64,000 nucleotides of DNA from an uncultured Planctomycetota bacterium (GTDB taxonomy: Bacteria > Planctomycetota > Planctomycetia > Isosphaerales > Isosphaeraceae): NCBI GenBank assembly GCA_963823665.1, contig CAWGMQ010000005.1, forward strand, positions 928,001 to 992,000, given 5' to 3'. A program made the translations under genes and the position numbers. Positions 1,915-23,378 of this stretch are shown one piece after another; the stretch's first letter is position 1, and every line of letters begins with the position of its first letter. The notes under the pieces were generated by a model. It ran no database searches, had not been told where the DNA came from, and was given only the letters and a program-made list of their open reading frames with translations.

Positions 1915-4900
1915 CTAAAACAAACTGAGCTGCCGGTCATTCTGCCGCCGGCCACCGGCGACCTGCTGCCGGTAAACGGGGTCGCGCCGGGGGGCGGCGG
2001 GCAGTTCGGGAAAAGGATGGATCACCGGCGGCATCGGTTCCGCAGGGCGGGCCGGTGTCGCGACGGCGGCGATGGGCGCCTCCACCGGGGTTGCCGCCGG
2101 CTCGGGCTCGACCGGGGGCAGGGCAGCGGGCATCGCTTCGCTGCGGCGGCGGATGCGCGCCGTCACCGGCTCCTCGGCGGTGGCTGCGCTGCGAGGCGTC
2201 CGCCGCTCAGGCGCCGCCTCGATAGTGTGGCCGGCTCTCAGGGCCTTGATGCGGTCGGCCAGTTCGCTGACCGATATCTCCGCACCTGTTGCGGGGGGCG
2301 TCGCCTGAGACAGGCCGGCCTTGAGCTGGTCACGCAAATCCGTCAGTTCGGCCAGGTAGGCATCGTGGGCGAAGGGGCGGCCGATGCGGGCCTGGTAATC
2401 GCGGAGCTGGGTTCTGGCAATCTCCAGATCCTGCCGGGTCGCGTCGCTTTGGCCTTGATAGCCGTCGGCGAGCCGCTCGAGGGCGTTCATCACCGCCCGC
2501 GGGCCGCGATGGTCGCGGGAAAGCAGGCCGTGGCGTGTTACGGCTCCTTCGAGGAAAACCTCGGCGGCGCCGCTCTGGTGCAGCGCCAGGCCGAACCCGA
2601 GGCCGCGATAGCTGCCGATCGGAAACCGCGTAAAATCACGCGCCTTGTCAGGAAGGGCATCGAGCTTCGCCCCAAGTATGTCCAGACTATCGCTACCGTT
2701 GCAGGCGCGATTGCCAATGGTGACGGGATCGCGCTCGTGCGCGACGAGCGTCGCCCTATCAGCCGATAAATCGGCCTGGCGTTTATCCAGACGGGCGATG
2801 GTGTCAGGGAGCTCGCGCAGGGCGCGGCGGGCGAGGTACTGCTCGTCGGAGTGGTTCTTCGCCAGGATGGCCAGCCGCTGCAACTCGGCGTCGGCCTCGG
2901 CGAGGGTGAGCACCGCCGGGTTGCCCGAAGCGATGGCTTTCACCTCGGCGTAGGACAATTCCTGCCCGCCGATGTCCTCGGCCCGGCGGGCGGCATTGTC
3001 GCCGGTCATCACCTGAGAGATAAACCTGGCCTTGGTTTCGAGGGCCTGCCACATATAGGCATCGAACGAGCCTTCGGTGACGTAGCGGTAAATCGCAACG
3101 ATCGGGTTGTCGTTGCCTTGCCGGAGAATCCGGCCTTCGCGCTGCTCGACTTCGGCCGGTTTCCACGGCGCGTCGAGATGATGCAGCGCCACCAGCCGCT
3201 TCTGCACATTCGTCCCAGTACCCATCTTCTGGGTGCTGCCGATCAGCACGCGGACGCTGCCGCTGCGCACCCGGTCGAACAGGGACTGCTTCTTGGCGTC
3301 GGAATCCGCCTCGCCGACTGCGGCGATCTGCCCGGCCGGGATGCCGGCGGCGGTGAGTTTGCTAATGAAGTCATCATAGACGCAGTAACCCCAGGGCGTC
3401 GGGTTGACGCCCATGTCGCAAAACACCATCTGCGTGCCGCGCGTCGCGGCGGTCTTTTGCCAGATTTCGGCGACGTTTCTGGCCATGGCGTTGATTTTGG
3501 AGTCCGGGTGATCGATGGCGGTAGCCGACAGCAGCCGGGCGTCGAGCGCCAGCTTGCGGCCGTCGGTGGTGATGGCCAGGGCGTTATCCACCCTCGGATC
3601 GACTTTCTCCTTTCGCAGCCGCTCGTAGCGGGCGACCAGCCCGGTTTGAAGGGCGGCTTGTTCTTCCGACATCGGGCAGGCGACCACCTGCGGCTTGCCG
3701 CCTTCGAGCTTCGGGCGGGGCAGGTCAAGCATCTCCGGCGTCTGCACGTCGGCGAAGGCGCGGAACATCGTCCCGAGCTCGGGCAGGTTGACGAACTTCG
3801 CAAAGCGGCTGCGCGGCCGTAAGCTGGCGCCGTCGGGGGAGATTTCCATGGTGTCGACGACCTCGCCGAAGGTCGCCGCCCAGCCGTCGAAATGCTCGAT
3901 GCCCCGGCTCCTGAGTCCTTCCGGGTCGAGGAAGCGCTGCATCGTATACATCTCGACCATGGTGTTGGAAATCGGCGTGCCGGTGGCGAAGGTCACGCCG
4001 TGGCCTGCCTTCGCCGAAGCGTGGCTACGCGCAGGCAGGCCGGGATGCTGCTCACCCAGATAGCGGGCTTTCATATACAGGTCGAAGGCGCGCTCGCTGC
4101 CGCCGGTCTGGATGCCGGCGACGCGGTCCATCTTGGTCGGCGTCTCCAAATTCTTGAAGTAATGCGCCTCGTCGATGAAGACATGGTCGACGCCCAGCTC
4201 GTCGAACACCAGCCCGTCATCCTTCTTGCCTTCGGCCATCAGCTCCTTCAGCCGCTCCTCGCGGCGCGCTTTTTGCTTCTCGATGGATTTGATAATGTTC
4301 CTCGGGGTGCTGTTTCCGGCGTGGTCGCGCAGCAACTGGTCGTATTCCCCGATCTGCTCTTTCAGAAACTTCTCCTGGTAGTCGCGCGACATGCCGATGC
4401 GCTCGAAGCTCGAATGCGTCATCACGATGCCGTCCCACTCGCCGCCGGCGATCTTGGCGGTCAGCAATTTGCGGCGGTCTTTGGCCAGGTCGTCCTTGGT
4501 GGCGACCAGCAGCCTTGCGTTGGGATAAAGCTGCATGAACTCGCGGGCGAATTGCTCCAGCATATGGTTGGGCACGACATAGACCGGCTTCTTGAGCAGG
4601 CCGGCATGCTTCATCTTCATGCCGGTGGCGGCCATGGTGTAGGTCTTGCCCGCGCCAACGGCATGCGCCAGCAGCGTGTTGCCCGCACTCATCCCCCGCC
4701 AGACCGCGTCCTGCTGGTGCGGGTTGAGCCTTATCCCGCTGTTCATGCCGGGGAAGTCCAGATGCGAGCCGTCGAACAGGCGGGGACGCAGATTATTGTA
4801 GGTATCATTATACAAGCGAACCAGCCGCTCGGTACGCTCGGGTTCGGCGAACAGCCAGGATTTGAATCGCTCCTTGATGCGCTTCTGCTTCTCGCGGGCG

Positions 4901-7098
4901 GCCAGCGTGTCGTCCTGGTTCACCACCCTCTCCTCTCCGTTTGGACCCTGGATGGTGTCGTAAATCACCGGCGTCTTCATATTGAGGGCGAGGTCGAGCA
5001 GCCATGTTCCGTTAGCCCGCACCGTGCCGTAGTCGCTCGTCGCGGCGACTGACGCCTCGGCGGCGTGGCCGGCCTCGACGCTCCACACCGCATCCTTTTT
5101 CAGGTGACCGACCGTGATGTCGGACGCGGCGACGCCGAACAGTTCGGCGGCGAATGCCTGGATGTCGGAACCCGGTATCCACGGTGCGCCCAGATTAGCG
5201 TCGATATCGCCCGGCAGCACGTCTTCGGGCTGGACGTGGCGCAGCGCCTCGGCATTGCGGGCGTAAGCCGCGCCGGCCGCCTCGGCGAATTTGAGTTTGT
5301 CACGCACATTGCCGGACAAATATTGATCGGCGGTCTGCCACTGCCACGATTGCGGGTCGCGGTAAATCAGATCACCGAGCTCGGCGATGATGGCCTCCTC
5401 GGGCTTGCCATATAGTTGGCTGATATAGGCCAGGTCAACGCCGCCATTGCGGTCGAGGCTGACCAGCAGCCCATCCTCGGCGGATGTGACATGCGTGACC
5501 GGTGGGCTCTTGCCGACGACATCACGCATCAAGATGGGAGCTTTGGCGGCTTTGCCGGTGACCTCGTCGTAATCCTCCAACGCCATCACCAGCATTGCAT
5601 CGGGGTCTTCGCGGAACTTGACGATATTCGGCATGCGGCGGATGACCGTGCCGTCGGCGGTTTCGCTGAAGGTGGTTTTGTTGACCGGGCCGTAGGTGGC
5701 GGCTAAGCGGTCATAGGCGAAGTTCAGCTTGCGGCGCGCGTCGATGCGGTTAGCCTCCGGCCACCCCTCGTTCTGCGACCGCAGCACCTGGCGGGCGAGA
5801 TCCCGTAATCCCACCAGAGCGGCAAGCCGGCGGCCGGTCATCGTCCCATCGGACTTCAGCAGCGTGCCGCCGTACGTCACCGGGACGGCTCGGCCGTCTT
5901 CGATTTGACAGATGGTGCGGTCATCGGCGACGAAGAAGCTGCCCTCGGTGATGTGTTTCTCAGGCGGCGGCGCGATGAATGCCGGGGGAGGAGGATTGGG
6001 CATTTCGGCGGCGGACTGCGTCACCTCAAACTTCGGCAGCCGGTCGATGGCCTGCCTCAGTTGCTCCGCCAGGTCGCCGGTGCCGGTGACGCTGAATCCC
6101 TCGCCGCCATACAGCGTGTCCTTGCGGCTGAATTCACCGAGCACCATCTCCGGATGGCGCACGAAATAGCTGTTGATCGGGATGTCGGCCGCGGCCAGCT
6201 TCATGGTGACGGTGTGCAGCCACTGCGGATCAACGTGGTTGGGTTCCTGACCGGGGGCGCGTTTCTTCAGGAACAGGATGTCGGTGACGACGCGGGTGCC
6301 TTCATTCTTGAACGCATCGGACGGCAGGCGAATCGCTCCCAGGAAATCGGCCTGGCCGGCGAGCTGCTCGCGGACGCTGGCATTCTGCTTGTCGAGCGTG
6401 TAGTGGCTGGTGACCACGGCCAGCACCCCTCCAGGTTTCAGCGCATCGACAGATTTTGCTATGCAGAAATCATGCAGCGACAGTTTCCGGCCCTGGAATT
6501 CGAGCTTTACATCCGCGAAGGGGACGTTGCCGATCACGGCACCGATGGTGCCCTCCGGCAATTTTGTGTCACGGAATGACTCGATGCGGATATCGGCGGC
6601 CGGGTGCAGCGCGCGGGCGATGCGCCCGGAAGTCGCGTCGAGCTCGACGCCGATGAACCGCTGGCCAGCCGGTGCATTTGCCATAAAGTTCCCGGTGCCA
6701 CAACCGGGCTCGAGGATGGTCGTGTTGGCCGGGACGCCAAGCCGCGCCAATGCGTCGTGGATGGCGGCGATGACGGTGGGCGACGTGTAGAAAGCGGTGA
6801 AGGTGGTTCGCTTCGCTGAGTCATACTCCACAGGTGACAGCAGTGACTCGAGCTCCTTCCCGAGCGTCTCCCAACCGGCATCCTTGTAGCGGCCGGTAAC
6901 GGCATCGGGAAAGAGCGACAGGGCCACCGCCGCGAATCCACCGAAGCGGGCGAGCGTTTGCCGCTCGTCGGCGGTGGCGGGACGGTTCTCCCGCTCGATG
7001 GTTTGCAATGTGCGGATGGCGGAAATGACGACGCGCGCCTTGGCTTTGTCGCCGGAGGCGATGGTTGATGGTGCGGTTTGGGTGATGGTTTGTTCCAT
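1915..7098 (-). CDS. N6-adenine DNA methylase / SNF2-type helicase fusion (DarB-like), about 1727 aa
   Basis: LEPGCGTG and GNVPF methylase motifs; HAVGAGKT, DEAH, TGTP, GTGTNVQ and EQREGRILRQGN helicase motifs. Start placed at ATG 7098 behind an AGGAGAAGGA RBS rather than at 7845. Confidence 0.9.
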   Translation of the reverse strand: MEQTITQTAPSTIASGDKAKARVVISAIRTLQTIERENRPATADERQTLARFGGFAAVALSLFPDAVTGRYKDAGWETLGKELESLLSPVEYDSAKRTTFTAFYTSPTVIAAIHDALARLGVPANTTILEPGCGTGNFMANAPAGQRFIGVELDATSGRIARALHPAADIRIESFRDTKLPEGTIGAVIGNVPFADVKLEFQGRKLSLHDFCIAKSVDALKPGGVLAVVTSHYTLDKQNASVREQLAGQADFLGAIRLPSDAFKNEGTRVVTDILFLKKRAPGQEPNHVDPQWLHTVTMKLAAADIPINSYFVRHPEMVLGEFSRKDTLYGGEGFSVTGTGDLAEQLRQAIDRLPKFEVTQSAAEMPNPPPPAFIAPPPEKHITEGSFFVADDRTICQIEDGRAVPVTYGGTLLKSDGTMTGRRLAALVGLRDLARQVLRSQNEGWPEANRIDARRKLNFAYDRLAATYGPVNKTTFSETADGTVIRRMPNIVKFREDPDAMLVMALEDYDEVTGKAAKAPILMRDVVGKSPPVTHVTSAEDGLLVSLDRNGGVDLAYISQLYGKPEEAIIAELGDLIYRDPQSWQWQTADQYLSGNVRDKLKFAEAAGAAYARNAEALRHVQPEDVLPGDIDANLGAPWIPGSDIQAFAAELFGVAASDITVGHLKKDAVWSVEAGHAAEASVAATSDYGTVRANGTWLLDLALNMKTPVIYDTIQGPNGEERVVNQDDTLAAREKQKRIKERFKSWLFAEPERTERLVRLYNDTYNNLRPRLFDGSHLDFPGMNSGIRLNPHQQDAVWRGMSAGNTLLAHAVGAGKTYTMAATGMKMKHAGLLKKPVYVVPNHMLEQFAREFMQLYPNARLLVATKDDLAKDRRKLLTAKIAGGEWDGIVMTHSSFERIGMSRDYQEKFLKEQIGEYDQLLRDHAGNSTPRNIIKSIEKQKARREERLKELMAEGKKDDGLVFDELGVDHVFIDEAHYFKNLETPTKMDRVAGIQTGGSERAFDLYMKARYLGEQHPGLPARSHASAKAGHGVTFATGTPISNTMVEMYTMQRFLDPEGLRSRGIEHFDGWAATFGEVVDTMEISPDGASLRPRSRFAKFVNLPELGTMFRAFADVQTPEMLDLPRPKLEGGKPQVVACPMSEEQAALQTGLVARYERLRKEKVDPRVDNALAITTDGRKLALDARLLSATAIDHPDSKINAMARNVAEIWQKTAATRGTQMVFCDMGVNPTPWGYCVYDDFISKLTAAGIPAGQIAAVGEADSDAKKQSLFDRVRSGSVRVLIGSTQKMGTGTNVQKRLVALHHLDAPWKPAEVEQREGRILRQGNDNPIVAIYRYVTEGSFDAYMWQALETKARFISQVMTGDNAARRAEDIGGQELSYAEVKAIASGNPAVLTLAEADAELQRLAILAKNHSDEQYLARRALRELPDTIARLDKRQADLSADRATLVAHERDPVTIGNRACNGSDSLDILGAKLDALPDKARDFTRFPIGSYRGLGFGLALHQSGAAEVFLEGAVTRHGLLSRDHRGPRAVMNALERLADGYQGQSDATRQDLEIARTQLRDYQARIGRPFAHDAYLAELTDLRDQLKAGLSQATPPATGAEISVSELADRIKALRAGHTIEAAPERRTPRSAATAEEPVTARIRRRSEAMPAALPPVEPEPAATPVEAPIAAVATPARPAEPMPPVIHPFPELPAAPRRDPVYRQQVAGGRRQNDRQLSLF
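4002..4041. repeat. Palindromic mini-element inserted in frame in the helicase gene
   Basis: GGCCTGCCT...AGGCAGGCC inverted ends; encodes LPARSHASAKAG between HPG and HGVTFATGTP. Confidence 0.6.
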
Positions 7099-11367: not shown

Positions 11368-12326
11368 TGAGAACGTTTATCTTGGCCAGCCTCGCGCTGG
11401 CCACCTCACTCGCGTTGCCAACACCGGCCCAGGCCGGCCTGGGCAGCCGGGCTGCCCGGGAGCTGGTTGAATTCCTTGGGAAGAAATTCGGCAAAGAGGT
11501 TGTCGCTGAGGGAGCCGAGCGGCTGGCCGGCCGCCTGGTGAAAGCGGCGGCGCGGCACGGAGACGACGTGCTGACTGCCGTCCGCAAGGTCGGGCCCAAA
11601 GCGATCGGGCTGGCCGATGACGCGGGGGTGAATGCTCCCAGCGTTATCCGCCTGCTCACCCATTACGGGGACGACGCCGCCCGTGCCCTGAGCCGTCCCA
11701 GGGGGATGGCGCTTATCTGCCGCTACGGCGACGATGCGGCGAAGGCATTGATCAGGCACAAGGGCGTCGCCGAACCGTTGCTCGACAGCGTCGGGATGCC
11801 CGCCGTCAAGGCGATGAACGCGCTCGGGCCACAAGCCGGGCGCCGTCTTGCCATGATGGCCGGGGACGAGCTGGCTGCCATCGGGCGCACGCCCGAGCTG
11901 CTTGAGGTCATCGCCCGTCACGGCGACAAGGCGATGGAGTTCATCTGGAAACATAAGGGGGTACTGGCGGGAAGCGCCGCGCTGGCGGCCTTCCTGCGCG
12001 ACCCCGAACCGTTTCTGAGCGGAACGGCGGACATCACGCGCGTGGTGTCGGAAAACGTGGTCAAGCCGGCGGCCGCCACGGTTGCAGGCACGGTTAAACC
12101 CTTAGTTGCCGCGGCCCGTGAGGCGCTGCGGCCGATGATCATGGACGCCGCCGAGGCCACCAGGAAGTTCGTGCTCTGGCTCGGCGGCTGGTTGCTGATC
12201 GCCATCCTGAGCTTTTTTCTTGCCGTGAGGCTTATCTACAAGAGCGGCTTCCTCGGAAAGTTGATCGTCAAGACGGGGTTCAAGCTGGCCGGAGGCCAGA
12301 TCGTCGGGGCGATCAGGAAGAAATGA
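11367..12326 (+). CDS. Hypothetical exported protein with xGD[DK] repeats and a C-terminal transmembrane helix (319 aa)
   Basis: Signal peptide ending PAQA; RHGDD, HYGDD, RYGDD and RHGDK repeats; GGAGG RBS. Confidence 0.75.
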   Translation: MRTFILASLALATSLALPTPAQAGLGSRAARELVEFLGKKFGKEVVAEGAERLAGRLVKAAARHGDDVLTAVRKVGPKAIGLADDAGVNAPSVIRLLTHYGDDAARALSRPRGMALICRYGDDAAKALIRHKGVAEPLLDSVGMPAVKAMNALGPQAGRRLAMMAGDELAAIGRTPELLEVIARHGDKAMEFIWKHKGVLAGSAALAAFLRDPEPFLSGTADITRVVSENVVKPAAATVAGTVKPLVAAAREALRPMIMDAAEATRKFVLWLGGWLLIAILSFFLAVRLIYKSGFLGKLIVKTGFKLAGGQIVGAIRKK

Positions 12327-12530: not shown

Positions 12531-13340
12531 ATGTCAGAGACCGAAAGACCGGTTCTCGCGTTCGATACCGCCTCGTGCCTGCCGCCCGACGACAACCGCC
12601 CTGGGGAACGGCCCGGCATCAATAGCCTGATCGAGGGGATTCGCGCTAACAGCCAACTCGTGCCGGGGCTGATCTGCCCGCACCCGGACATCCCGGACAA
12701 GTACCTGATACTCGACGGTGTCGGCCGTTGGTTCGCCTGCGGCAGGCTGGGCATCTTGTTTCGGGCGATGCTGCTGGCTGCCGCCGTGGGGGAAGCCGAG
12801 CGCATCAAGCTGCGGCTGCAGCACAACCTCATCCGCCGCAACATGACCCAGGATGAAATCGCCGACGATGCGGCCCGCTATATGAGCCTCACGCACTGCA
12901 CGCAGGAAGAAGCCGCCCGGGAGCTCACCCTGTCCACGGCTACCGTGTCACGGGCGCTGGCCGTCAAACGCCGCATTCCACCCGAGCTCAAGGCGATGGC
13001 GGAACTGGTCCGCCCGTCGATCACGTCCATGATCGCGACGTTGCCCGATGCCGGAGCCATGCGGCAGGGGTTCGAGCTTGCGACGACGCCCGGCAAGAAC
13101 GGCAAGCTGCCGACCCGCGACCAGATGGCGCTTTATCTCGAACCGCTCAGGAAAAAGAAGCCACGTGAACCGAGGGTTAAAACCCTCAAAGGCACGGTCG
13201 ATGGCCGCAAGGTGGAACTCGGGGTGCTGCCCGGCGAGTCGACCGATTCCGTTATCAAGTTCCTGCAGGCGCTGGCCGCGAAACTCAGCAAGTACCGTGA
13301 CCTGCCGCCCGATAACCTCGGGTTTCTGTTCAACGGCTGA
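12531..13340 (+). CDS. parB: ParB/RepB/Spo0J-family protein
   Basis: YLILDGVGRWFA (variant of the GxxRxxA box), HNLIRRNM, HTH TQEEAARELTLSTATVSRAL; AAGGAG RBS. Confidence 0.8.
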   Translation: MSETERPVLAFDTASCLPPDDNRPGERPGINSLIEGIRANSQLVPGLICPHPDIPDKYLILDGVGRWFACGRLGILFRAMLLAAAVGEAERIKLRLQHNLIRRNMTQDEIADDAARYMSLTHCTQEEAARELTLSTATVSRALAVKRRIPPELKAMAELVRPSITSMIATLPDAGAMRQGFELATTPGKNGKLPTRDQMALYLEPLRKKKPREPRVKTLKGTVDGRKVELGVLPGESTDSVIKFLQALAAKLSKYRDLPPDNLGFLFNG

Positions 13341-13658: not shown

Positions 13659-15140
13659 GTGAATCACTCACTTATGCGATTCCTGTTCGGGACGGCAGGC
13701 GCCAGGCGGTTGCAACGGCGCCCGCGCGATTCGCTCGATCAAGCGCTGCTGAACTGGAGCGAACACGATGTGCTGAACATGCGCACATTGCTGGACGGTG
13801 GTTGTCTCGTGTTGGGCCGGAGCGGCAGCGGCAAGACGTCGAGTTCGGGCAAGGCGCTCGGGCACGCCATCGTCAAATATCCCGGCAGCGGCGGGTTGAT
13901 CCTCGGGGCGTCGCCCACCGACCTGGAGATGTGGAAGGCGATCTTGGCGGCCGAGGGCAGGCTCGACGATCTCATCTGCTTCGGGCCGAAACACAAGCAC
14001 CAGTTCAATGTCATAGATTACCTGATGCGGCTGGGCTACGACTCCCGCGAGATCGCCAAAGCGATCATCACCATCGGGGAGTCGCTGGATAACGACGACT
14101 CCCGCACCGGCGGCGGCGACACCGATAAGTTCTGGCCGATTCAGAGCAAAATCACGATCGAGACGGGGGTTGAAATCCTGAAACAAACCGACAGACGCGT
14201 CCATCTGCCGTCGTTGCAAAAATTCATCATCACGGCGGCGCAATCATCGGCGGCGTTGAAGACCGAGGAATTCAAGACAAACTTTCACGGCCAGTGCTTC
14301 GCCAAGCTTTTCGACAAAGAGCGCACTCGCATCGAGGAGCACGAGTTCGAGCGGGCATGGAACCGCTGGATAGTGCAGTGGCCCGAGATGAATACGCGCA
14401 CGCGGACGTCGATAGAAGCCGGCGTCACCGGCATCCTCGACGTGTTCTCGCAAGGGATCGTGCGGTCGCTGATTTGCGAGGAAACGACGATTACGCCGGC
14501 GGCCATGGACGAAGGCAAATGGCTCTTCGGCGACATGAGCGTCGGTCAATACGGTTCGTCAGGGGCGTTCGTGCTGAACGCCCTCAAATATGCCACCCAG
14601 TGCCATGTCCGCAGCCGCATGCCGGGGCAGTGGAAGAATGTCATCGGCATCTGGGCCGACGAGGCCGCCAAGATTGTGAACTCTCAGGATTCTTTCTACC
14701 TCACTGAATCAAGGAAATACGGGGGATTTACCGTGTTCCTGGCGCAAAGCATGCAGTCGTTCCACGCCGCCCTGGCCGGTGAGAGGGGCAGGAGCCAGGC
14801 CGAGGTTTTGCTCGGCTCGTTTTCCACGAAGGTTGCGCACGCTATAGGGGACCCCGGGACTGCCGAGTGGCTGAGTTCCATCCTCGGTAATGAGGTGAAG
14901 CTCCGGTTGAACGTGACGGCGCCCGACGAAAAACCGATGGGAGAGGAGATTTTCAGCAGCGGCGGCGGCAACGCCGGCTGGGGGGAGCAGGTAGAACCCT
15001 GTCTCGAGCCCCGGCATTTCATGCACGGGCTGAAGACCGGCGGGAAACTGAACGGCAACATCGCCGAGGCCATCGTCCTGCGCTCGGGGCAGTTGTTCTC
15101 GAACGGCCAGAGTTATCTGCGGGTGGCGTTCCAACAGTAG
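13659..15140 (+). CDS. VirD4/TraD-like type IV coupling ATPase lacking an N-terminal membrane anchor
   Basis: Walker A GRSGSGKT, Walker B IWADEA, ESRKYGGFTVFLAQS and DPGTAEWLSSILG are typical of TraD/TraG C-terminal domains; AAGGAG RBS before the GTG. Confidence 0.85.
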   Translation: MNHSLMRFLFGTAGARRLQRRPRDSLDQALLNWSEHDVLNMRTLLDGGCLVLGRSGSGKTSSSGKALGHAIVKYPGSGGLILGASPTDLEMWKAILAAEGRLDDLICFGPKHKHQFNVIDYLMRLGYDSREIAKAIITIGESLDNDDSRTGGGDTDKFWPIQSKITIETGVEILKQTDRRVHLPSLQKFIITAAQSSAALKTEEFKTNFHGQCFAKLFDKERTRIEEHEFERAWNRWIVQWPEMNTRTRTSIEAGVTGILDVFSQGIVRSLICEETTITPAAMDEGKWLFGDMSVGQYGSSGAFVLNALKYATQCHVRSRMPGQWKNVIGIWADEAAKIVNSQDSFYLTESRKYGGFTVFLAQSMQSFHAALAGERGRSQAEVLLGSFSTKVAHAIGDPGTAEWLSSILGNEVKLRLNVTAPDEKPMGEEIFSSGGGNAGWGEQVEPCLEPRHFMHGLKTGGKLNGNIAEAIVLRSGQLFSNGQSYLRVAFQQ

Positions 15141-15264: not shown

Positions 15265-15435
15265 GTGGTCGATGTGTATGACTTCGAGAAGTCGAAGAGA
15301 ACACTGTACAAAAAGGGCGAAATCAAGGAAGCGCCCAAGATGACGTGGAATCAATACGTTCTCTCAAGAATTGACGAGGAACTAAAGCGTCAGAGAGATA
15401 CCCCAATCCATCCGGATATCGACGTTACACGATAG
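15265..15435 (+). CDS. Small hypothetical protein (56 aa)
   Basis: AAGGAGAAAGGA RBS before GTG 15265; ends PDIDVTR. Confidence 0.45.
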   Translation: MVDVYDFEKSKRTLYKKGEIKEAPKMTWNQYVLSRIDEELKRQRDTPIHPDIDVTR

Positions 15436-16118: not shown

Positions 16119-16657
16119 ATGCCTCCCCAATCGCCTGAAATGAAGGAATCGCGGCCTGCCGATATGGTGAACGTGATGTTCACGCTCGCCGGCATCCACG
16201 TCGCTTGCATCACGCCGTTCCTACGCTCACGCTTCGGCTCGCACGCTTTCACGGCATACCCGCTGGCCGCAGTCTTGATGGTTTTCTATGCGGGCTTTGC
16301 GAAGTGCCCGCTGCTGGCGTGGTACATCCTGCCGTGGATGGTGATGGTGGCCTACAGGCGGCTCACCGCTTGGGCGTCCGTCCACTCCCGGTATCAAGGC
16401 TACCCCTATGTTTTTGGGTGGATGGCCAGCGAGTTCGTGGCGCGGCTGGCCGAGGTCTTCATCTGCTTCTTCGCGGCGGTATGGCTTTCGACGATCTCAA
16501 AGCCGCTGGCGAAGTTCGTCATGGCGGAGATCGTGTCGCTTCTGATTGTGCTGGCGACAGAATGCGCGACCCTTGCGGCGCGCAACGCGCCATGCGCGAT
16601 GCCCAATGGGAGGCGATGCAGATGCGCGAGCTGCACCGTGGCGGTTCGGGTTGGTGA
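16119..16657 (+). CDS. Multi-pass membrane protein with one apparent frameshift near 16583
   Basis: About four hydrophobic segments; the reading continues in another frame as RAMRDAQWEAMQMRELHRGGSGW-stop. Confidence 0.6.
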
Positions 16658-16706
16658 GTCATGTGTTTCGAGGTCAGTCAGTCATCCCACTGAGAGGAGT
16701 TTCGCA

Positions 16707-16901
16707 ATGGCAAAACTAGGTGAAAACGCCCTGGCCAACATGGCCAGGCTTGGACTGGAGGAATTGCGTTCCGCCAATGCGGGCGAGAAGGCAATGGATG
16801 CGCCGGTGGTTGTGAAGCCGAGCTATGCGGAAGCGCTCAGCCGGCAGGCGGCGATGTCGCAAGGTCGCGGGCAAGCCCCGGATCAGGGTATTTCGAGATA
16901 G
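16707..16901 (+). CDS. Small protein (64 aa) with shared C-terminal tag
   Basis: GAGAGGAG RBS; MAKLGENALANMARLGLEELRSA...SYAEALSRQAAMSQGRGQAPDQGISR. Confidence 0.7.
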   Translation: MAKLGENALANMARLGLEELRSANAGEKAMDAPVVVKPSYAEALSRQAAMSQGRGQAPDQGISR

Positions 16902-16909
16902 GGGGAGCC

Positions 16910-17296
16910 ATGTCAGACATCCAGAAATCGGTCATCAAGCATGCTCAGGATGACATGGCCGCCAATCCTGCGGCCTCACAGGACAAGAAAGAGCCGTCGC
17001 TACTGCGGCGGGCTATCGCAAAACGTAACGAATGGGCCGCGCAGCAGCCCTCATTCGCGGGTCAACTGGCCGCCATGTGGCGCGAGGGCATCAAGGACGT
17101 GCGCCAGACGGTGAATGAAACCTATTTCGGCAAACCCGAGCATATGGCTGAAGCGGGTACGCCGATGAACCCCACGCAGCAGCAGGTGACCGCCGAGCAA
17201 GGCAATTTCCACGGGTACAGCGAGATGCTCGACCAGCAGGCTGACAGCCGCGCGAGTGTCCGCGGCGACGATAAAGACAAGGGCATGGCCCGCTAA
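16910..17296 (+). CDS. Hypothetical protein (128 aa) with shared C-terminal tag
   Basis: GGGGAG RBS; ends GYSEMLDQQADSRASVRGDDKDKGMAR. Confidence 0.75.
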   Translation: MSDIQKSVIKHAQDDMAANPAASQDKKEPSLLRRAIAKRNEWAAQQPSFAGQLAAMWREGIKDVRQTVNETYFGKPEHMAEAGTPMNPTQQQVTAEQGNFHGYSEMLDQQADSRASVRGDDKDKGMAR

Positions 17297-17325
17297 TCGT
17301 GCTTCCAATCGGGGAGATAAGAACC

Positions 17326-18003
17326 ATGATCGAGAAACTAGCCACCGATGCGTTGAACTACATCCGCACGCTCGACCAGCGCACGGTCCTCATCGTGTTG
17401 GCGGTCGCCGGCGTGGCGATCGGCGTCTCTGTCAAGCTGGCGAAGCGGATCAGAATTGCGCCGGTGGGCGATTCCATCAAGCTGGTGAAACGCATCGGGG
17501 TTGTGCCGGTGATTCTGGTCCCGCTCGTCCTCGCCGGGGCGTGGCTGGCGGGAGCGTACAGCACGGCGGCGGTCGTCAGGACGGTTGAGAAACCGGTGTA
17601 CGTCGAGAAGATCGTCGAAAAGCCCATGTCGACCGGCGCCGCGGTGGCTGAGCTGTGGGACAGGCTGCGCGCCGAGCAGCGGGAAAAAGAGAGGATCGCG
17701 GCGGCGTTGACGGAAGCCGAGAAAAGAATCGCCGGGCTCCTGGCCGCAGAGCCCTGGCGGCTGAAGGGCACGACGGTCAGGCGGAACAGCTATCCCTTCA
17801 AGGAGCCGTCCAACGGCTACTGCTCCCATTGCGGCGCCGAGCTGATCATCGAGGGAGAAAAAGGGGATGACACGATTCGGTGTCCGGGCTGCGGTGCAAC
17901 CATGACCGCGCTTCAGGCGATCGAGCTTTTTACCCGCATCGAGAACACCACCACCTGGGAGACCATGCCCAGGAAATACCGCAGGTACAAGTGGATTCGA
18001 TGA
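17326..18003 (+). CDS. Membrane protein with coiled coil and C-terminal zinc ribbon
   Basis: Two hydrophobic helices; CSHC...CPGC. Confidence 0.7.
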   Translation: MIEKLATDALNYIRTLDQRTVLIVLAVAGVAIGVSVKLAKRIRIAPVGDSIKLVKRIGVVPVILVPLVLAGAWLAGAYSTAAVVRTVEKPVYVEKIVEKPMSTGAAVAELWDRLRAEQREKERIAAALTEAEKRIAGLLAAEPWRLKGTTVRRNSYPFKEPSNGYCSHCGAELIIEGEKGDDTIRCPGCGATMTALQAIELFTRIENTTTWETMPRKYRRYKWIR

Positions 18004-18257
18004 TGCGGCAAGACGACCGCAGCGACAGGGGGCTATCCGCCATGGGAGACCAATATCAACCCGGCCAGATGAACAGCGGTAACGGCCCGAGGTTCGATTA
18101 CAGCGCCGCTGCAGCGGCTGAGATTCTCAACTTGCATTTTGACCCGTCGCAGCCGAAGGAACTTCTCTACGAGCGAATCCTGGGCACGATCCTCAGGGCG
18201 ATGGATGCGGCGGCGGATGAGTTAAACCGAGGACGAACGGAGCCGAGCGACAACTGA
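18000..18257 (+). CDS. Small hypothetical protein, paralog of 18628-18816
   Basis: GPRFDYSAAAAAEILNLHFDPSQPKELL...PSDN; the start could instead be ATG 18042. Confidence 0.6.
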   Translation: MMRQDDRSDRGLSAMGDQYQPGQMNSGNGPRFDYSAAAAAEILNLHFDPSQPKELLYERILGTILRAMDAAADELNRGRTEPSDN

Positions 18258-18460
18258 GGAGATCGTACCGCTTCGGTGCAGGACGGGTGCTAGGGAACAC
18301 AGCGTGAGCGCGTAGACCCGTCTGATTCCGCGGCCAGCCCTCCGCTGTACCCGTGGCCGAGTGAGATGGCTGACCGCAACCGGCGCCAGCCGGGCAACGA
18401 GTAAGGCAACGGCCATGCAAATGATAACGAGCGTTCGAGGTAACCCAGGGAGCAATCGCT

Positions 18461-18631
18461 ATGGCAGAGCTTATGACGTTTCTGATCGCCCTCCCCTTCC
18501 TCTACGTCATCGGGGATTTCTACTACCGGCTCGGCGCGTGGCTGTGCGAGGTACTGAGATCGGCCGTGCGGACGGTCGCCGCATGGCGCCATAATGCCGC
18601 ACCGTGCCGGGCGGGGAGGAACTCCCGATGA
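18461..18631 (+). CDS. Small membrane peptide (56 aa, below the ORF-track cutoff)
   Basis: GGGAG RBS; MAELMTFLIALPFLYVIGDFYYRLGAWLCEVL...; ATGA overlap with the next gene. Confidence 0.45.
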   Translation: MAELMTFLIALPFLYVIGDFYYRLGAWLCEVLRSAVRTVAAWRHNAAPCRAGRNSR

Positions 18632-18816
18632 CCGAGGAAGGCCCGCGCTATCATCGCGCCTACGAGGCCACCGTTGAAATCCTGAATTTGCATATCTTCG
18701 ACCCGGAGAAGTCGCGGGTTGAATTGATAGGCAAAGTGTTATTCATCGTCCTCGCGGCCATGTACGAGGCCGAAGCGGAGTTGCGGGAACATCGGTATCA
18801 GCCGAGCGAGAACTGA
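18628..18816 (+). CDS. Small hypothetical protein, paralog of 18000-18257
   Basis: GGAGG RBS; GPRYHRAYEATVEILNLHIFDPEKSRVEL...PSEN. Confidence 0.65.
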   Translation: MTEEGPRYHRAYEATVEILNLHIFDPEKSRVELIGKVLFIVLAAMYEAEAELREHRYQPSEN

Positions 18817-18888
18817 CGCTGTCGCATCGGAATGTGAGAAAGCCCGGCGTAATTGGACGCCGGAAGCAAGCAAGGGGAGATCTGTCCA

Positions 18889-20160
18889 ATGGCTGGAGAA
18901 CGTTTGGCTCGGGAATCCGATGCCCAGCGCGAAGACAGATACTGGGAGATCGTCGGCTCCGGGGCGTACTTTCCGGAGGGATGGGAAATGCCGCATTTGA
19001 CTTCGCCGCCAGAGTCCAGCATGCCGGGTGCGGCGGACCGGGCGCGGATGCAGGTTGAGGCGTTGAAGTCCGCCGAGTTTGAGAGCACGCATCCGCCGGA
19101 GCGAACGGCTTGGAGCGAACTTTCGGAATGGTCGAGGTTCGATAATCTGCGCCACTGGGTCGATTGGGACGGCGTCAGCCGCGACGATCGGGCACGGCTC
19201 ATTGGCGGCCAGTTGAATGCTTACGAGCTGGCTGTCGCCCGCATACCCTCGCATGAATACTGCACGGCCATCGACATGCCGGAACTGATGGAGTTCTGGG
19301 AGCGACTCGACCCGGCCAATCAGAAACGCTTCGCGGAGATGCCCTCGCTCGCCGAGCTGAAGGCGTTCACGGAGGCTGTCGCGAACTTACGGACCAACGG
19401 CGCGCCCGATGAATTCGATCGAATCGTCGCTAATCTGCCACACGAGTGGCGCCACGACGGGCACGCCGACAGCGGGAAAACATGGGAGGATTTGAATGCG
19501 GTAGATAAGACCGGCTATCTGGCCGAGCACGGTGCGCGGCATAAGGTTTCGTTTGAGAGATTCGTTGACGCGACAAGTCGCACGCTCGGCCTGGCGTCCT
19601 GGGAGCAGTTCACGGCGGACGATATTGGGCAATTGCTGGAGCAATATCGTGACACGGTGGAGCGGCAGCGCTCCGAGGCAGCGCAACCGGCGGCGCGCAT
19701 GCCGGAGCTGGCGGAAGACAATTACGACCGCCATCTCGACCCCAACACACCAGGGCGCGACGACTGGATGTCCAAGCTCTCCATAGACGACCAATCCCGC
19801 AAGGAATTGGCGGCCGAGCTCGACCGCATCAAGCGTGATACCTATGTCGATGCAGAAGAGCAGGCTACCGGATCGATGTATACACGCGGTGAAGGAGGTT
19901 ATCCGTTCCATGAATTGCCAGTCGTCGAATGCGAATCGTTGATCGAAGATTATGTCGATTGGGGCAAATACATGGAACGCGGGCTAACCTTCGCGGACCA
20001 GGGCCGCGTCATGCATGAGGCGGCGAGAGACCCTCTCCCTCGTGAAACTCCGACAAGTCCCGAGGGGATCAACCCATCCGCCGACTACCAGAAGGCGCTC
20101 GGTGCTGCCGCTGATCGCGGCTCGAACAAGGGAAAGGAAGGGCTTGAACGTGACCGTTAA
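18889..20160 (+). CDS. Acidic hypothetical protein (about 423 aa) with internal repeats and shared C-terminal tag
   Basis: GGGGAG RBS; ends DYQKALGAAADRGSNKGKEGLERDR. Confidence 0.75.
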   Translation: MAGERLARESDAQREDRYWEIVGSGAYFPEGWEMPHLTSPPESSMPGAADRARMQVEALKSAEFESTHPPERTAWSELSEWSRFDNLRHWVDWDGVSRDDRARLIGGQLNAYELAVARIPSHEYCTAIDMPELMEFWERLDPANQKRFAEMPSLAELKAFTEAVANLRTNGAPDEFDRIVANLPHEWRHDGHADSGKTWEDLNAVDKTGYLAEHGARHKVSFERFVDATSRTLGLASWEQFTADDIGQLLEQYRDTVERQRSEAAQPAARMPELAEDNYDRHLDPNTPGRDDWMSKLSIDDQSRKELAAELDRIKRDTYVDAEEQATGSMYTRGEGGYPFHELPVVECESLIEDYVDWGKYMERGLTFADQGRVMHEAARDPLPRETPTSPEGINPSADYQKALGAAADRGSNKGKEGLERDR

Positions 20161-20338
20161 AGAGTTCGCTGAACGGGCTGAAATCAGCTTGTCGCTGGCC
20201 TATGCCCTGGTGGAGGAAGGACGCGTGCCCCATCGGCGTATCGGCCGCCGCGGCCGCCGCGGGAAAATCTCGATCCGCGTCGAAGATCTGGAGCTGTTCT
20301 TGGAAAGCGTCAAGGTGGAGGCGGAGGCCGGGACTTGA
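20150..20338 (+). CDS. xis: Excisionase-like HTH DNA-binding protein
   Basis: MTVKEFAERAEISLSLAYALVEEGRVPHRRIG...IRVEDLELFL fits the HTH_17 pattern; convergent with the integrase. Confidence 0.8.
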   Translation: MTVKEFAERAEISLSLAYALVEEGRVPHRRIGRRGRRGKISIRVEDLELFLESVKVEAEAGT

Positions 20339-20385
20339 CCCGGCCTTCTTTGTTGTTGTGCCGGAGAAAGGACGGCCCCGGCTCC

Positions 20386-21432
20386 TCAGCCGCCCTTCGC
20401 GACGCGCCTGCCCTTCTCCTTCCTGGAAATCTTGTCCACCGTCCGGCGCATGGCTTCCGGCGATTCATGCAGGTAATTCCTGAGCATCGTGTTCAGATTG
20501 CTGTGGCCGACCTGGCGGGCAACGAGGGCAACGTTGGCGTCCGTGTCATTGACCGCGCTCGAGATGTAGCCATGCCGTATCGAATAGGTCACGGCGTTGT
20601 CCGGCAAGCCCAGCTCGATCCTGATTCTTCGCACCGCCTGCCCGATGATGTCCGGCCGCCACGGGCGGCCTTTGGCGTTCAGGAACACATGCCCCTCCGT
20701 GCGTCCGCCGATGGCTGACCGGATCAATTTAGCCAGGGGTTTCGACATGTACACGTTCCGCTCTTTGTTGCCGGTCGTCTTCGCCGTCTTGTTGGGAACG
20801 GTCATCACGCGCTCTTTGAGAATCACCTTGTCGATGGTGACGGCGCACAGCTCGCCGGGGCGGCATCCCGATTCCCGCAGCGCCGCCAGGATGCGTTTCA
20901 GTTCGGGATGGGCGGCATCCTCCAGCTTTCTCTGCTGGGCGTCGGTCGGAATCGTCTCGCGCCGCGAGTATTTCGGTTTCTTGCCGCGCGCAAACTTGAC
21001 GTGGTGATCCGCGATGTGGCCTTCGGTGACGGCGTGGCTGAGGGCGGAGGTGATGCGGTTGATGGCCGTCGCCTTCGTGGAATCCGACCACGATGCTTTG
21101 GTCTTCAGGTATTCGTTGACGTGATGGACGCGGAGGTCGGACACCTTCCGGTTTCCGACGAAAGCCTTGAACCAGTCGAGATGCTCGCGGGCGGTCTGCT
21201 TTGTCTTTGGGTTGGTCAGGTACTCGATGTATTTGCCGGCCACCTCGGCAAACAGCATGTTCTCCGGCTTCGGATTGGTCTGCCGCTCGAGGGTGTGCCA
21301 GGCATCGACGATCTTTTTGGGCGGGTGTTTGCGCTTCGCGCCGTGCGGGTCCTTGCCAAGGGTCTTGAGCCTGCCCCCAGGCTGTTTAACCACCCAGGTG
21401 CCGGACTGCTCTCGCCAGTATGGCCGCCGCAT
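20386..21432 (-). CDS. int: Tyrosine recombinase/integrase
   Basis: Catalytic motifs SGCRPGEL, K in PNKT, YSIRHGY and VGHSN...NY. Confidence 0.92.
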   Translation of the reverse strand: MRRPYWREQSGTWVVKQPGGRLKTLGKDPHGAKRKHPPKKIVDAWHTLERQTNPKPENMLFAEVAGKYIEYLTNPKTKQTAREHLDWFKAFVGNRKVSDLRVHHVNEYLKTKASWSDSTKATAINRITSALSHAVTEGHIADHHVKFARGKKPKYSRRETIPTDAQQRKLEDAAHPELKRILAALRESGCRPGELCAVTIDKVILKERVMTVPNKTAKTTGNKERNVYMSKPLAKLIRSAIGGRTEGHVFLNAKGRPWRPDIIGQAVRRIRIELGLPDNAVTYSIRHGYISSAVNDTDANVALVARQVGHSNLNTMLRNYLHESPEAMRRTVDKISRKEKGRRVAKGG

Positions 21433-21527: not shown

Positions 21528-21572
21528 CCACCTTGACAGGGTGGCGAGCACTCCGGGCTGCTCCGCAAAGGC
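21528..21572 (-). pseudogene. trnD: 5' half of tRNA-Asp(GTC), truncated after the anticodon stem; att junction
   Basis: GCCTTTG CG GAGC AGCCCGGAGT GCTC G CCACC CTGTCAA GGTGG, then unrelated sequence with no T-arm. Confidence 0.85.
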
Positions 21573-21578
21573 GTTCAC

Positions 21579-21609
21579 ATTTTAGATTTTGGATTTTAGA
21601 TTTTGAATT
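21579..21609. repeat. Heptamer tandem repeat (ATTTT[A/G]G), about 4 copies
   Basis: attttagattttggattttagattttgaatt. Confidence 0.6.
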
Positions 21610-21643
21610 GCGGGGTAATCCGTTCGTGCGCTTCGCAATGTAA

Positions 21644-21717
21644 TGGCTCAGGAGGGATTCGAACCCTCAGCATCTCTCGTTCTGAGCGAGAGTGGTCTGC
21701 CGGTTGCCTACCGAGCC
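21644..21717 (-). tRNA. trnL: tRNA-Leu(CAG), short variable loop
   Basis: Anticodon arm TCTCG CTCAGAA CGAGA; T-loop GGTTCGAATCC. Confidence 0.88.
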
Positions 21718-21726
21718 AAGTGTCAG

Positions 21727-21801
21727 TTCCGGGGGCTGGAATCGAACCAGCGGCCTCCACGTTCAGAGCGTGGTGTTGCTACCAACAGCAACCGCCCCGG
21801 A
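21727..21801 (-). tRNA. trnQ: tRNA-Gln(CTG)
   Basis: CCACG CTCTGAA CGTGG; GGTTCGATTCC. Confidence 0.88.
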
Positions 21802-21824
21802 GTCGTGTCATTGCGTCGATCTAA

Positions 21825-21896
21825 TTCGGGAAGAAGGATTCGAACCTCCACCACCTGATTCAAAGTCAGGCAGCCTGCCAGTTAGCCGATTCCCGA
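21825..21896 (-). tRNA. trnQ: tRNA-Gln(TTG)
   Basis: CCTGA CTTTGAA TCAGG; GGTTCGAATCC. Confidence 0.9.
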
Positions 21897-21909
21897 GTGA
21901 AGAGTACAG

Positions 21910-21980
21910 AGCGCCTCGCGGGAGTCGAACCCGCCTGTCAGACTTGGGAAGCCCGTGCCTGGCCGCTCGGCCAGAGAAGC
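21910..21980 (-). tRNA. trnG: tRNA-Gly(CCC), one acceptor-stem mismatch
   Basis: CGGGC TTCCCAA GTCTG; acceptor GCTTCTC/GAGGCGC. Confidence 0.75.
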
Positions 21981-21984
21981 TTCT

Positions 21985-22017
21985 ATTGATTGATCGATTC
22001 TGGATCGATCAATCAAT
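21985..22017. repeat. Perfect 14-bp inverted repeat between two tRNA-Gly genes
   Basis: ATTGATTGATCGAT-TCTGG-ATCGATCAATCAAT. Confidence 0.8.
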
Positions 22018-22023
22018 TTCCTA

Positions 22024-22094
22024 AGCGGGATCGGGGAATCGAACCCCGGTCGCCTGGTTGGAAGCCAGGAGTCGTGCCGCTAGACCAATCCCGC
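22024..22094 (-). tRNA. trnG: tRNA-Gly(TCC)
   Basis: CCTGG CTTCCAA CCAGG; GGTTCGATTCC. Confidence 0.9.
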
Positions 22095-22115
22095 AGCGCT
22101 CTTGATCGCCTAGAG

Positions 22116-22199
22116 CGGAAGGAGAGGGAGTCGAACCCTCAAGGCTCATCGCTCGCCTGATTTCGAATCAGGTGCCGTCACCCATCGGCTTGCCCTTCC
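22116..22199 (-). tRNA. trnS: tRNA-Ser(CGA)
   Basis: CCTGA TTCGAAA TCAGG with a long variable arm. Confidence 0.9.
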
Positions 22200-22270
22200 T
22201 TCTTGCAGACCGAGTCATGCATTGCCGCTCGCGAACATTTCGTCGAACCTGACAGCACTGCGTTCTGAAG

Positions 22271-22342
22271 CACCGGCGGAAGGAGTCGAACCTCCAATCG
22301 TCGCCTTAACAGGGCGCCGCCTTACCGTTAGGCCACACCGGT
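22271..22342 (-). tRNA. trnN: tRNA-Asn(GTT)
   Basis: CGCC CTGTTAA GGCG; GGTTCGACTCC. Confidence 0.85.
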
Positions 22343-22347
22343 ATCAC

Positions 22348-22422
22348 TCGGGATGGCCGGATTTGAACCGGCGATCTCCTGCTCCCGAAGCAGGCGGATT
22401 ACCCAGGCTATCCTACATCCCG
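22348..22422 (-). tRNA. trnP: tRNA-Pro(CGG)
   Basis: CCTGC TTCGGGA GCAGG; GGTTCAAATCC. Confidence 0.9.
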
Positions 22423-22428
22423 CTCTCA

Positions 22429-22499
22429 AGTGCCCAGCGGGAGTCGAACCCGCGCTTCCGCCATGGCAAGGCAGTAGGCTACCACTACAACATGGGCAC
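22429..22499 (-). tRNA. trnG: tRNA-Gly(GCC)
   Basis: CTGCC TTGCCAT GGCGG; acceptor GTGCCCA/TGGGCAC. Confidence 0.82.
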
Positions 22500-22540
22500 A
22501 GTTGACCGAAGCCGAATTGTCAAGGAATCGAAACCGAGAG

Positions 22541-22612
22541 AGCACCGGGTGGGACTCGAACCCACGTCGCCGCATTACGGGTGCGGTGTCCTCGCCGCTG
22601 GACCACCAGTGC
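22541..22612 (-). tRNA. trnT: tRNA-Thr(CGT), C at position 33
   Basis: CCGCA CCCGTAA TGCGG; GGTTCGAGTCC. Confidence 0.82.
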
Positions 22613-22644
22613 ATCGATCAGATCAGACGGACTGAGTGACTGAA

Positions 22645-22717
22645 TGGGACCAGAGGGGCTCGAACCCTCACCCACCTGGTTAAGAGCCAGGCGCTCTGCC
22701 ACTAGAGCTTTGGTCCC
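22645..22717 (-). tRNA. trnK: tRNA-Lys(CTT)
   Basis: CCTGG CTCTTAA CCAGG. Confidence 0.9.
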
Positions 22718-22780
22718 GAGATTCGCAATGCTTGAATTGAATTGAGGTCGCACTTCGTCGCGGCGCGCCGCCGCCCCACC

Positions 22781-22817
22781 AAACAAAAAGGCCCGGTGCT
22801 TCGTGACACCGGGCCTT
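22781..22817 (-). terminator. Intrinsic terminator directly upstream of 12 tRNA genes (attenuator)
   Basis: AAGGCCCGGTG-TCACGAAG-CACCGGGCCTT followed by TTTGTTT. Confidence 0.8.
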
Positions 22818-22960
22818 GATCACAGCTTCGGGAAGTCGTGATGGGCCAAGTGTCAACAACGCAGCGTGTAATTCGGCTGGGGACTCGCCGAGCGACCGGC
22901 ATCATCCTTCGCCTCACTCGTTTGGGATAGCAAATTCAGTTCTGACAACATGCCGTTCAT
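22804..22960 (-). promoter_or_regulatory. Putative leader peptide (35 aa, 22853-22960) plus antiterminator hairpin (22804-22855)
   Basis: MNGMLSELNLLSQTSEAKDDAGRSASPQPNYTLRC-TGA; TGACACTTGGCC, which begins at the stop codon, pairs 11 of 12 with GGCCCGGTGTCA of the terminator 5' arm and loop. Confidence 0.6.
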
Positions 22961-23198
22961 TGAAGTCTCGTTGCCGCGATCGGCCTCAGGGTCTAATTGC
23001 CTTCTACCTCATGGACGCAGCAGCTCACCCGGATGTTCGCGCCGATTTTTGGTTTTTTCCTTCGTACCGATGAATTCGTCGGCGAGAGGCCTACGCGCGG
23101 GAAGAGGATCACTCCGCCGACGTCAAAAAGTTCCTCGATTCCTTCAAGATCACCGAGGGCGCCGCATCGAAGTAAGTTGGAGCCGAGCGGCGATCGAA

Positions 23199-23269
23199 TC
23201 GGCCCGGAAGGAGTTGAACCTACGTCTCCCGGTTATCAGCCGAGTGTTCTGCCGTTGAACTACGGGCCG
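23199..23269 (-). tRNA. trnI: tRNA-Ile(GAT)
   Basis: CTCGG CTGATAA CCGGG; GGTTCAACTCC. Confidence 0.85.
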
Positions 23270-23306
23270 AGAAACAATTCCCGCTCTGTCGCGGCCGTGC
23301 CGCAAC

Positions 23307-23378
23307 TGGGGCCGGAGGGATTTGAACCCCCACCTCCCGGCTTAAAAGGCCGATATGCTGCCTTTACACCACGACCCC
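23307..23378 (-). tRNA. trnK: tRNA-Lys(TTT)
   Basis: TCGGC CTTTTAA GCCGG; GGTTCAAATCC. Confidence 0.88.

Follow-up and report, generated by a model that had tools for sequence, protein, structure and literature searches.

The stretch of DNA analyzed here, referred to as the window, comprises 64,000 nucleotides of a contig from an uncultured planctomycete of the family Isosphaeraceae (CAWGMQ010000005.1, positions 928,001 to 992,000). Part of it belongs to a putative mobile element on which a gene for a VirD4-type coupling protein is followed by three open reading frames (ORFs), here called A, B and G, whose products end in a similar short tail. A preliminary description of the window had proposed that this tail is a signal for type IV translocation. 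The genes and tails concerned are the following (position in the window, strand, feature):

13659..15140, +, coupling protein of VirD4/TraD type, clade 1; 493 aa; Pfam TraG-D_C and TrwB_AAD_bind over cut-off
16119..16657, +, helical membrane partner of the coupling protein, family of ~190 aa; conserved; frame break near 16583
16707..16901, +, ORF A, 64 aa with a GAGAGGAG ribosome site of its own; short paralogue of B
16821..16898, +, tail of A, 26 residues, ending in ...GISR; 26.4 bits, exceeding all 627 background genes
16910..17296, +, ORF B, small conserved companion of the coupling gene; 128 aa, core AMxRxG...GxxxNPT followed by the tail
17213..17293, +, tail of B, 27 residues, ending in ...GMAR; 28.4 bits, top genome-wide match of the tail profile
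18889..20160, +, ORF G, acidic mosaic cargo of shuffled modules; 423 aa; homologues match separate parts
20083..20157, +, tail of G, 25 residues, ending in ...GLERDR; 22.2 bits; overlaps the start of the excisionase-like gene xis

The earlier assignment of 13659-15140 to VirD4 is confirmed by its nature as a P-loop ATPase with TraG-D_C/TrwB_AAD domains. Its Walker A and B motifs are intact in alignments, and the PDB contains a single sequence match, DotL, which covers the N-terminal P-loop region (E=2.8e-9). Hydropathy analysis revealed no transmembrane segment that could serve as an N-terminal membrane anchor in the window's coupling protein; a hydrophobic segment, mostly N-terminal, is present in 29 of its 84 full-length relatives. 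A homologue of the membrane partner was modelled with a pLDDT of 90, and searches with the partner gave no Pfam match, no significant fold match (best Z 4.2) and no detectable likeness to DotM or TrbA. In the window, a single ORF (16119-16901) makes A look fused to this membrane gene. The fusion is probably an assembly slip, because the C-terminus of the membrane-gene family falls in another frame and one short-read contig (depth 3.7) carries one additional base behind 16583. B belongs to no Pfam, NCBIfam or PHROG family, and the modules of G, in which D+E amount to 20% of the residues vs 12% for K+R, have no match in Pfam or PHROG.

The tail profile was trained on 54 non-redundant tails of the B family and scored on the last 32 residues of each gene; to avoid circularity, tails of the window's own locus were kept out and all training tails came from other genomes. 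Genes on related loci were called by a codon-model script, and 627 genes, taken from 38 stretches of chromosome and from the remainder of the window, served as the background set. None of these scored as high as A, B or G (maximum 16.9 bits). The three endings quoted in the preliminary description are present in the window, all matching Y-x2-[AM]-L-x3-A and G-[IML]-x-R, and they are genuine and above chance. The further motif LA.M.R.G...[LV]R noted in the first two ORFs is likewise there; it reflects paralogy, the N-terminus of A matching a profile of the B core without tail (E=0.003). A and B are thus not independent cases; G is, and the comparison within the window is that of B vs G. The two weaker endings that had been added to the list are at chance level. 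The one at 15265-15435 (PDIDVTR) scores 8.9 bits, which is reached by 10 of the 627 background genes, and its last five residues are matched equally well by 32 of them; for the ending at 8227-8637 (NDLGTSR), scored on the last five residues only, the corresponding number is 26. Viewed across the family, the C-termini of B and cargo proteins have a short helix motif, which is followed by a charged linker and then by [G/E/D]-hydrophobic-[E/D]-R-COOH, the last five positions reading x-[E/G/D]-[M/L/I/P]-[E/D]-R, and some B proteins carry the tail motif in tandem repeats. The arginine-containing tails that had been invoked are, in the Agrobacterium sense, not supported: the net charge of the last 20 residues has a median of -2 in B tails, and the consensus R-X7-R-X-R-X-R, which we take to be the Agrobacterium-type positive C-terminal signal pattern, occurs in 0 of the 54 training tails and in none of A, B and G. 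A genome-wide tail scan of the host's own genome recovered B and missed A and G; such scans thus undercount.

A follow-up proposed with the translocation signal was to look for enrichment of the motif at C-termini near virD4, and the motif is indeed concentrated in the genes just downstream of the coupling gene. We used the family set of 114 loci that remained after removal of duplicates, left out B, relaxase and coupling genes, and set the threshold at >=15 bits. Tails above this threshold end 22 of 333 same-strand genes located 2-6 kb downstream of the coupling gene, vs 3 of 1161 genes elsewhere in the loci and 2 of 627 background genes. Eleven of the 22 were set aside as B-like (weak profile match or position only), after which 11 of 322 remained vs 2 of 627 (Fisher P=2e-4, a significance that is inflated by the kinship of the elements); these 11 include mosaics of the G type and a pentapeptide-repeat protein. 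Scanned in six frames, 101 genomes yielded 25 matches, 24 of them in coupling-protein elements (19 from the model, 5 not). In addition, the gene after the membrane partner bears the tail in 86 of the 96 loci that contain the partner, although 74 of these 86 belong to the B family and were mostly used in profile training. The motif is upheld at the protein level: its terminal arginine is retained in genes that do not overlap the next gene (19 of 19 tailed genes, 33 of 41 B genes), all six arginine codons are used, a distance of 15-25 residues separates the helix motif from any gene overlap downstream, and tails within one element show little DNA similarity. We conclude that the tail is a genuine C-terminal motif, under selection at the protein level, in the transfer operon of a mobilizable-element family that is common in planctomycetes. 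It terminates unrelated proteins that are linked to a coupling protein, as is expected of a T4SS translocation signal.

The window also contains further parts of this element, of which the DarB-like and ParB-like genes carry no tail:

1915..7098, -, DarB-like methylase-SNF2 helicase, inside the element
12531..13340, +, ParB-like gene, part of the element backbone (87 of 114 loci)
20150..20338, +, xis, excisionase-like gene (HTH_17) with a terminator-like hairpin behind it at 20323-20348
20386..21432, -, tyrosine integrase (Pfam Phage_integrase, E=7e-18)
21528..21575, no strand, right attachment site, 5' half of tRNA-Asp(GTC), repeat of G000:C5:875503-875550

The attachment repeat is identical at 47 of 48 bases between 21528-21575 and its counterpart 74 kb leftward. 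Its position beside the integrase and excisionase genes marks the locus as the right end of an integrated element of ~74 kb, which by its sequence is an integrative mobilizable element of the MOBF class in tRNA-Asp. A tRNA-Leu gene was considered as the attachment site and rejected, since no repeat of its 3' end was found. The predicted MOBF relaxase-helicase is encoded at G000:C5:914345-917092, 13.7 kb to the left of the window; it scores 128.7 bits with the MobF profile (cut-off 100), contains the catalytic tyrosine and the HUH motif, and ends in ...DHGYER. The relaxase, the borders of the element and the second type of tail described below had all been overlooked in the preliminary description.

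The coupling protein is encoded in 26 of the 101 related genomes and in 11 of 401 genomes phylum-wide. The backbone shared by the 114 loci comprises the ParB-like gene, the coupling gene, the membrane partner (99 loci), B (78 loci) and the excisionase; the recombinase is a tyrosine integrase in 49 loci and a serine recombinase in 38, and the relaxase lies inside the fetched flanks in 34. The B family forms 989 clusters at E<=0.001 in a representative library. Planctomicrobium sp. SH527 and Limnoglobus roseus PX52 are carriers that exist in culture. Nitrosospira, Skermanella and Runella also have coupling proteins of the same family, encoded on small plasmids whose relaxases are MOBP, MOBQ or MOBF. 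No mating-pair genes are annotated on these plasmids, and PLSDB nevertheless types the Nitrosospira plasmid as conjugative. On two of them similar endings occur on a small protein and on the relaxase, and with such endings on proteobacterial mobilizable plasmids the idea of a strictly planctomycete-specific signal is not supported. Separately, we noted stand-alone coupling-protein homologues of the PF02534 type (~460 aa; L311-L322) in ~14 relatives, in seemingly ordinary chromosomal surroundings.

The host genome contains a second MOBF element (C4), which has the same backbone and an unrelated, membrane-anchored coupling protein of the PF02534 type, encoded at G000:C4:537533-539395. The homologue of B in this element matches the B core with E=2e-11 and ends in PSPSEIA...GR, a tail without profile similarity to the first type. 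This second tail ends 12 genes in 6 of the 21 loci with a PF02534 coupling gene, vs one of 2017 genes in loci of clade 1 and 2 of 627 in the background, and it is confined to a single coupling-protein branch with six members (94/96 support), the sixth of which has tandem internal copies. Genome-wide, 13 of 14 matches below E=0.001 adjoin a PF02534-type coupling gene and the other (G421) could not be placed; ten further weak matches were likewise unplaced, except for one internal repeat in G401. The bodies of the cargo proteins do not follow this division. A pentapeptide-repeat cargo protein of locus L102, with the first tail, is 72% identical to that of L330, with the second, which is only 64% and 68% identical to two pentapeptide proteins with its own tail type. 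Another cargo module is 68-70% identical between L092 and L203/L328, whose tails are different, and the last module of G is 79% identical to P0016, a protein without known context that bears the second tail; cargo-body identities across tail types span 61-79%. Thus, the helix motif varies with the clade of the coupling protein, and cargo bodies move between clades.

These observations lead us to favor, as probable rather than secure, the view that the tail is a C-terminal recruitment (address) signal for the element's own coupling complex, carried by the cargo of helper-dependent elements. The element would first be excised and nicked. The coupling protein or its membrane partner may then bind the tail, upon which B, the cargo and the relaxase-DNA complex would enter the borrowed type IV channel of a helper element. 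The cargo, which consists mostly of acidic proteins and pentapeptide repeats, might act early in the recipient or tune the borrowed machine; from the acidic bodies, one could guess at an early role through DNA mimicry. The combination of a relaxase and an own coupling protein without mating-pair genes would fit helper-dependent elements such as CloDF13. The relaxase endings are supportive, though confounded: 33 of 36 relaxases end in arginine, vs 80 of 627 background genes.

Several observations weigh against this view. The relaxases resemble the tail in their last residues only. In 32 of 38 the ending is dual-coded, since the gene runs into the start of the following one, in most cases over 11 bases and with a CGA codon; four short relaxases of genome G452, which have no out-of-frame ATG in their last codons, still end in GIER, GLER, GYSR and GRGR. 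In the MOBF relaxases TraI and TrwC, the signals that have been mapped lie internally (PMC10025392). The DarB-like helicase and the leading-region genes, obvious candidates for early action, lack the tail. In favor of the view, cargo tails are close to the B tail of their own element (nearer than the median B tail for 22 of 26, with 15 in the top tenth), but these 26 genes were chosen by tail score or by eye on related elements. Nor is the code one-to-one, as the cargo of L340, L341 and L343, whose unrelated membrane-anchored coupling proteins form a further branch, bears the window's tail type, and two of these rank poorly against their own B tail. Finally, a channel is missing. VirB4 profiles found nothing over cut-off in the host (92% complete) or in 100 relatives, which, because many genomes are incomplete, means only that VirB4 was not found in the genomes searched. 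No mating-pair formation (MPF) family was detected among the element genes scanned, which sets the element apart from integrative and conjugative elements, and the host and the 100 relatives together contain a single VirB10 match, located on a short contig. Two candidates for VirB4 were discarded: matches to AAA_10 in 96 of 101 genomes are short P-loop matches in a mostly single-copy ORF of ~800 aa, and those to TIGR00929 in 39 of 101 genomes do not exceed 43 bits, the cut-off being 643. The effector cassette proposed in the preliminary description stays unproven, as searches of A, B and G revealed no domain of a toxin or an enzyme and no secretion channel is detectable in the element or the host. 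It has been reported that planctomycete chromosomes contain MOBF relaxases and coupling proteins without a complete MPF, and that one MPF-T plasmid exists (10.1101/2024.01.22.576637).

The missing channel would also favor two other explanations. One is that the tail is a docking motif working inside the donor without export, the tailed proteins being adaptors, gates or competitors (fertility inhibition or exclusion) at the coupling complex, the relaxosome or the gene after the relaxase. We regard this as doubtful, though deserving serious attention. B is indeed part of the backbone and not variable cargo, it follows two unrelated coupling proteins, and the tandem motif of some B proteins resembles that of multivalent binders. 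On the other hand, the occurrence of the same tail with a free C-terminal arginine on unrelated, shuffled cargo fits a substrate signal better than an adaptor, and relaxases, which are certain substrates, have like endings. The other explanation, which we consider unlikely, is that the coupling ATPase, the membrane partner and B may form a minimal transfer unit (or use a host channel of another class) without any borrowed VirB4 channel, the clade-specific tails being an address code that sorts the cargo of co-resident elements. It is suggested by the distribution of relaxases and VirB4: the TrwC relaxase is present in 36 of the 101 related genomes and VirB4 in none, and in a phylum sample of 331 the 14 genomes with TrwC and the 8 with VirB4-like ATPases, none of which belongs to the host's class, are disjoint.

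The remaining explanations dispense with recruitment to a DNA-transfer machine. It is very unlikely that the common ending has no function in the protein and arose as a by-product of gene duplication, together with overlaps of ribosome sites and start codons. The paralogy of A and B, the overlap of G with xis and the dual-coded relaxase ends could all arise in this way, but the by-product idea does not account for the overlap-free terminal arginines and their six codons, the distance of the helix motif from any overlap, the weak likeness of tail DNA within an element, or the G452 relaxases. A tag for degradation or stability that sets the half-life of transfer-operon proteins would likewise be short, terminal and fixed in position across unrelated proteins of one operon. 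We give this idea very little credence: a host protease tag would be expected on chromosomal proteins too, where only 2 of 627 background genes reach the threshold, and a change with the coupling-protein clade would be unexpected, since two elements of one genome use different tails. Known C-terminal degrons, moreover, are mostly non-polar. That a killing type IV system employs the tailed proteins as antibacterial toxins, in the manner of the Xanthomonas X-Tfes, is hardly credible. Variable cargo with a common C-terminal tag behind virD4 recalls such systems, but the scanned cargo contains no toxin domain, and the relaxase and integrase define a DNA-transfer element.

That C-terminal signals are read by coupling complexes is established (PMC10025392, PMC5802825, PMC8740702), and the nearest precedents for a recruitment signal are the VirB/VirD4 signals, DotL-DotM and XVIPCD; the tail lacks the defining features of the first and third. 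Agrobacterium VirF, VirE2 and VirE3 and RSF1010 MobA (last 48 residues) likewise have a short portable C-terminal tail beside a VirD4-type gene (PMC10025392). However, VirB/VirD4 substrate tails are arginine-rich and positive, whereas the planctomycete tails are neutral to acidic, have one terminal arginine, come in clade-specific types and sit on an element without virB genes. In Legionella, a membrane partner also stands beside the ATPase, and DotM reads acidic (Glu-rich, E-block) tails (PMC5802825); unlike there, the partner is here ~190 aa, the context is conjugative and there is no Dot/Icm channel. XVIPCD shares with the tail a bipartite C-terminus of conserved motif and polar tail and is bound by the all-alpha domain of VirD4 (PMC8740702), but it is a folded domain of ~120 residues on toxins, whereas the planctomycete tails have ~25-35 residues and no toxin domains. 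Membership among XVIPCD/X-T4SS effectors was rejected on the same grounds, together with the lack of a virB cluster and the length of A, which is only 64 aa. CloDF13 and integrative mobilizable elements with a relaxase and a coupling protein also lack mating-pair genes (PMC11389934); in the accessible text, the described mobilizable elements with their own coupling protein are not said to have a membrane partner, a B family, tailed cargo or tail types. The polyvalent proteins of conjugative elements are, like the cargo, mosaic and thought to travel with the DNA (PMC5512222). DUF4316 proteins of Bacillota are weak language-model look-alikes of B (0.78-0.81, below the reliability bar of the atlas). 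The word planctomycete is absent from the available parts of PMC12857230 and PMC5512222, and the literature searched, subscription journals being outside its scope, contains no description of these tails; Table S7 of 10.1101/2024.01.22.576637 may list such loci.

The choice of substrates by coupling proteins is understood in few systems, and the signals are usually too loose for prediction. The main interest of our finding lies in the natural tail swaps together with the absent channel. Near-identical bodies with two unrelated tails, and two clades in one genome, make specificity testable with 30-residue peptides, and a backbone is now defined for a common, undescribed element family. Native conjugation is unreported in the planctomycete phylum (10.1101/2024.01.22.576637), and the finding raises the question of which channel serves these elements. 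The tails may also provide delivery tags, and the elements vectors, for planctomycetes.

Several other features of these elements deserve mention. The four relaxases of G452 are MOBF proteins of only 331-345 aa without helicase domain (L275:16496-17515, L277:6693-7724, L278:2367-3404, L281:8377-9372). A hairpin with a compensatory change lies upstream of both relaxase genes of the host genome (L199:6230-6330, L203:18140-18240) and is a candidate oriT or operator; no nic motif common to the family emerged from a k-mer search of the regions upstream of 30 relaxases. The relaxase stop is overlapped by a gene for 130-170 aa without Pfam family (L199:9076-9574, that is, G000:C5:917076-917574), which is kept in nearly all such elements and plasmids and may encode a relaxosome accessory protein. 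Inside the element, L201:9723-14339 contains genes for ParA, for an RPA replication initiator of plasmid type and for another tyrosine recombinase; the element also has a TIR-domain gene (L200:9962-11197) and PIN toxin-antitoxin pairs, along with several fragments of IS/Tn3 type. The methylase-helicase of DarB type has the C-terminus QLSLF (window 1915-1932), which matches the sliding-clamp binding motif; the same ending occurs on a paralogue fragment in L205. Positions 10132-12326 of the window contain a pair of unnamed genes, of which the second encodes a hydrophobic segment at its C-terminus; the pair recurs in ~9 of the 114 elements, either upstream or downstream of the coupling gene. The paralogous genes of ~60 aa at 18042-18257 and 18628-18816, with a PS[DE]N ending, belong to a family present in at least 8 elements between B and xis.

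A tRNA array surrounds the insertion, with 13 tRNAs to the right and 10 to the left (window 21528-23378; L201:6341-7547, equal to G000:C5:874341-875547). The insertion duplicates the 5' half of tRNA-Asp, not its 3' end, and the downstream tRNAs are cut off from the start of the array. Further to the right, at 23966-51116, a very large repetitive protein of secreted type extends over consecutive ORFs (1790, 723, 1446, 5042 and 216 aa), and its splitting is probably due to assembly frameshifts.

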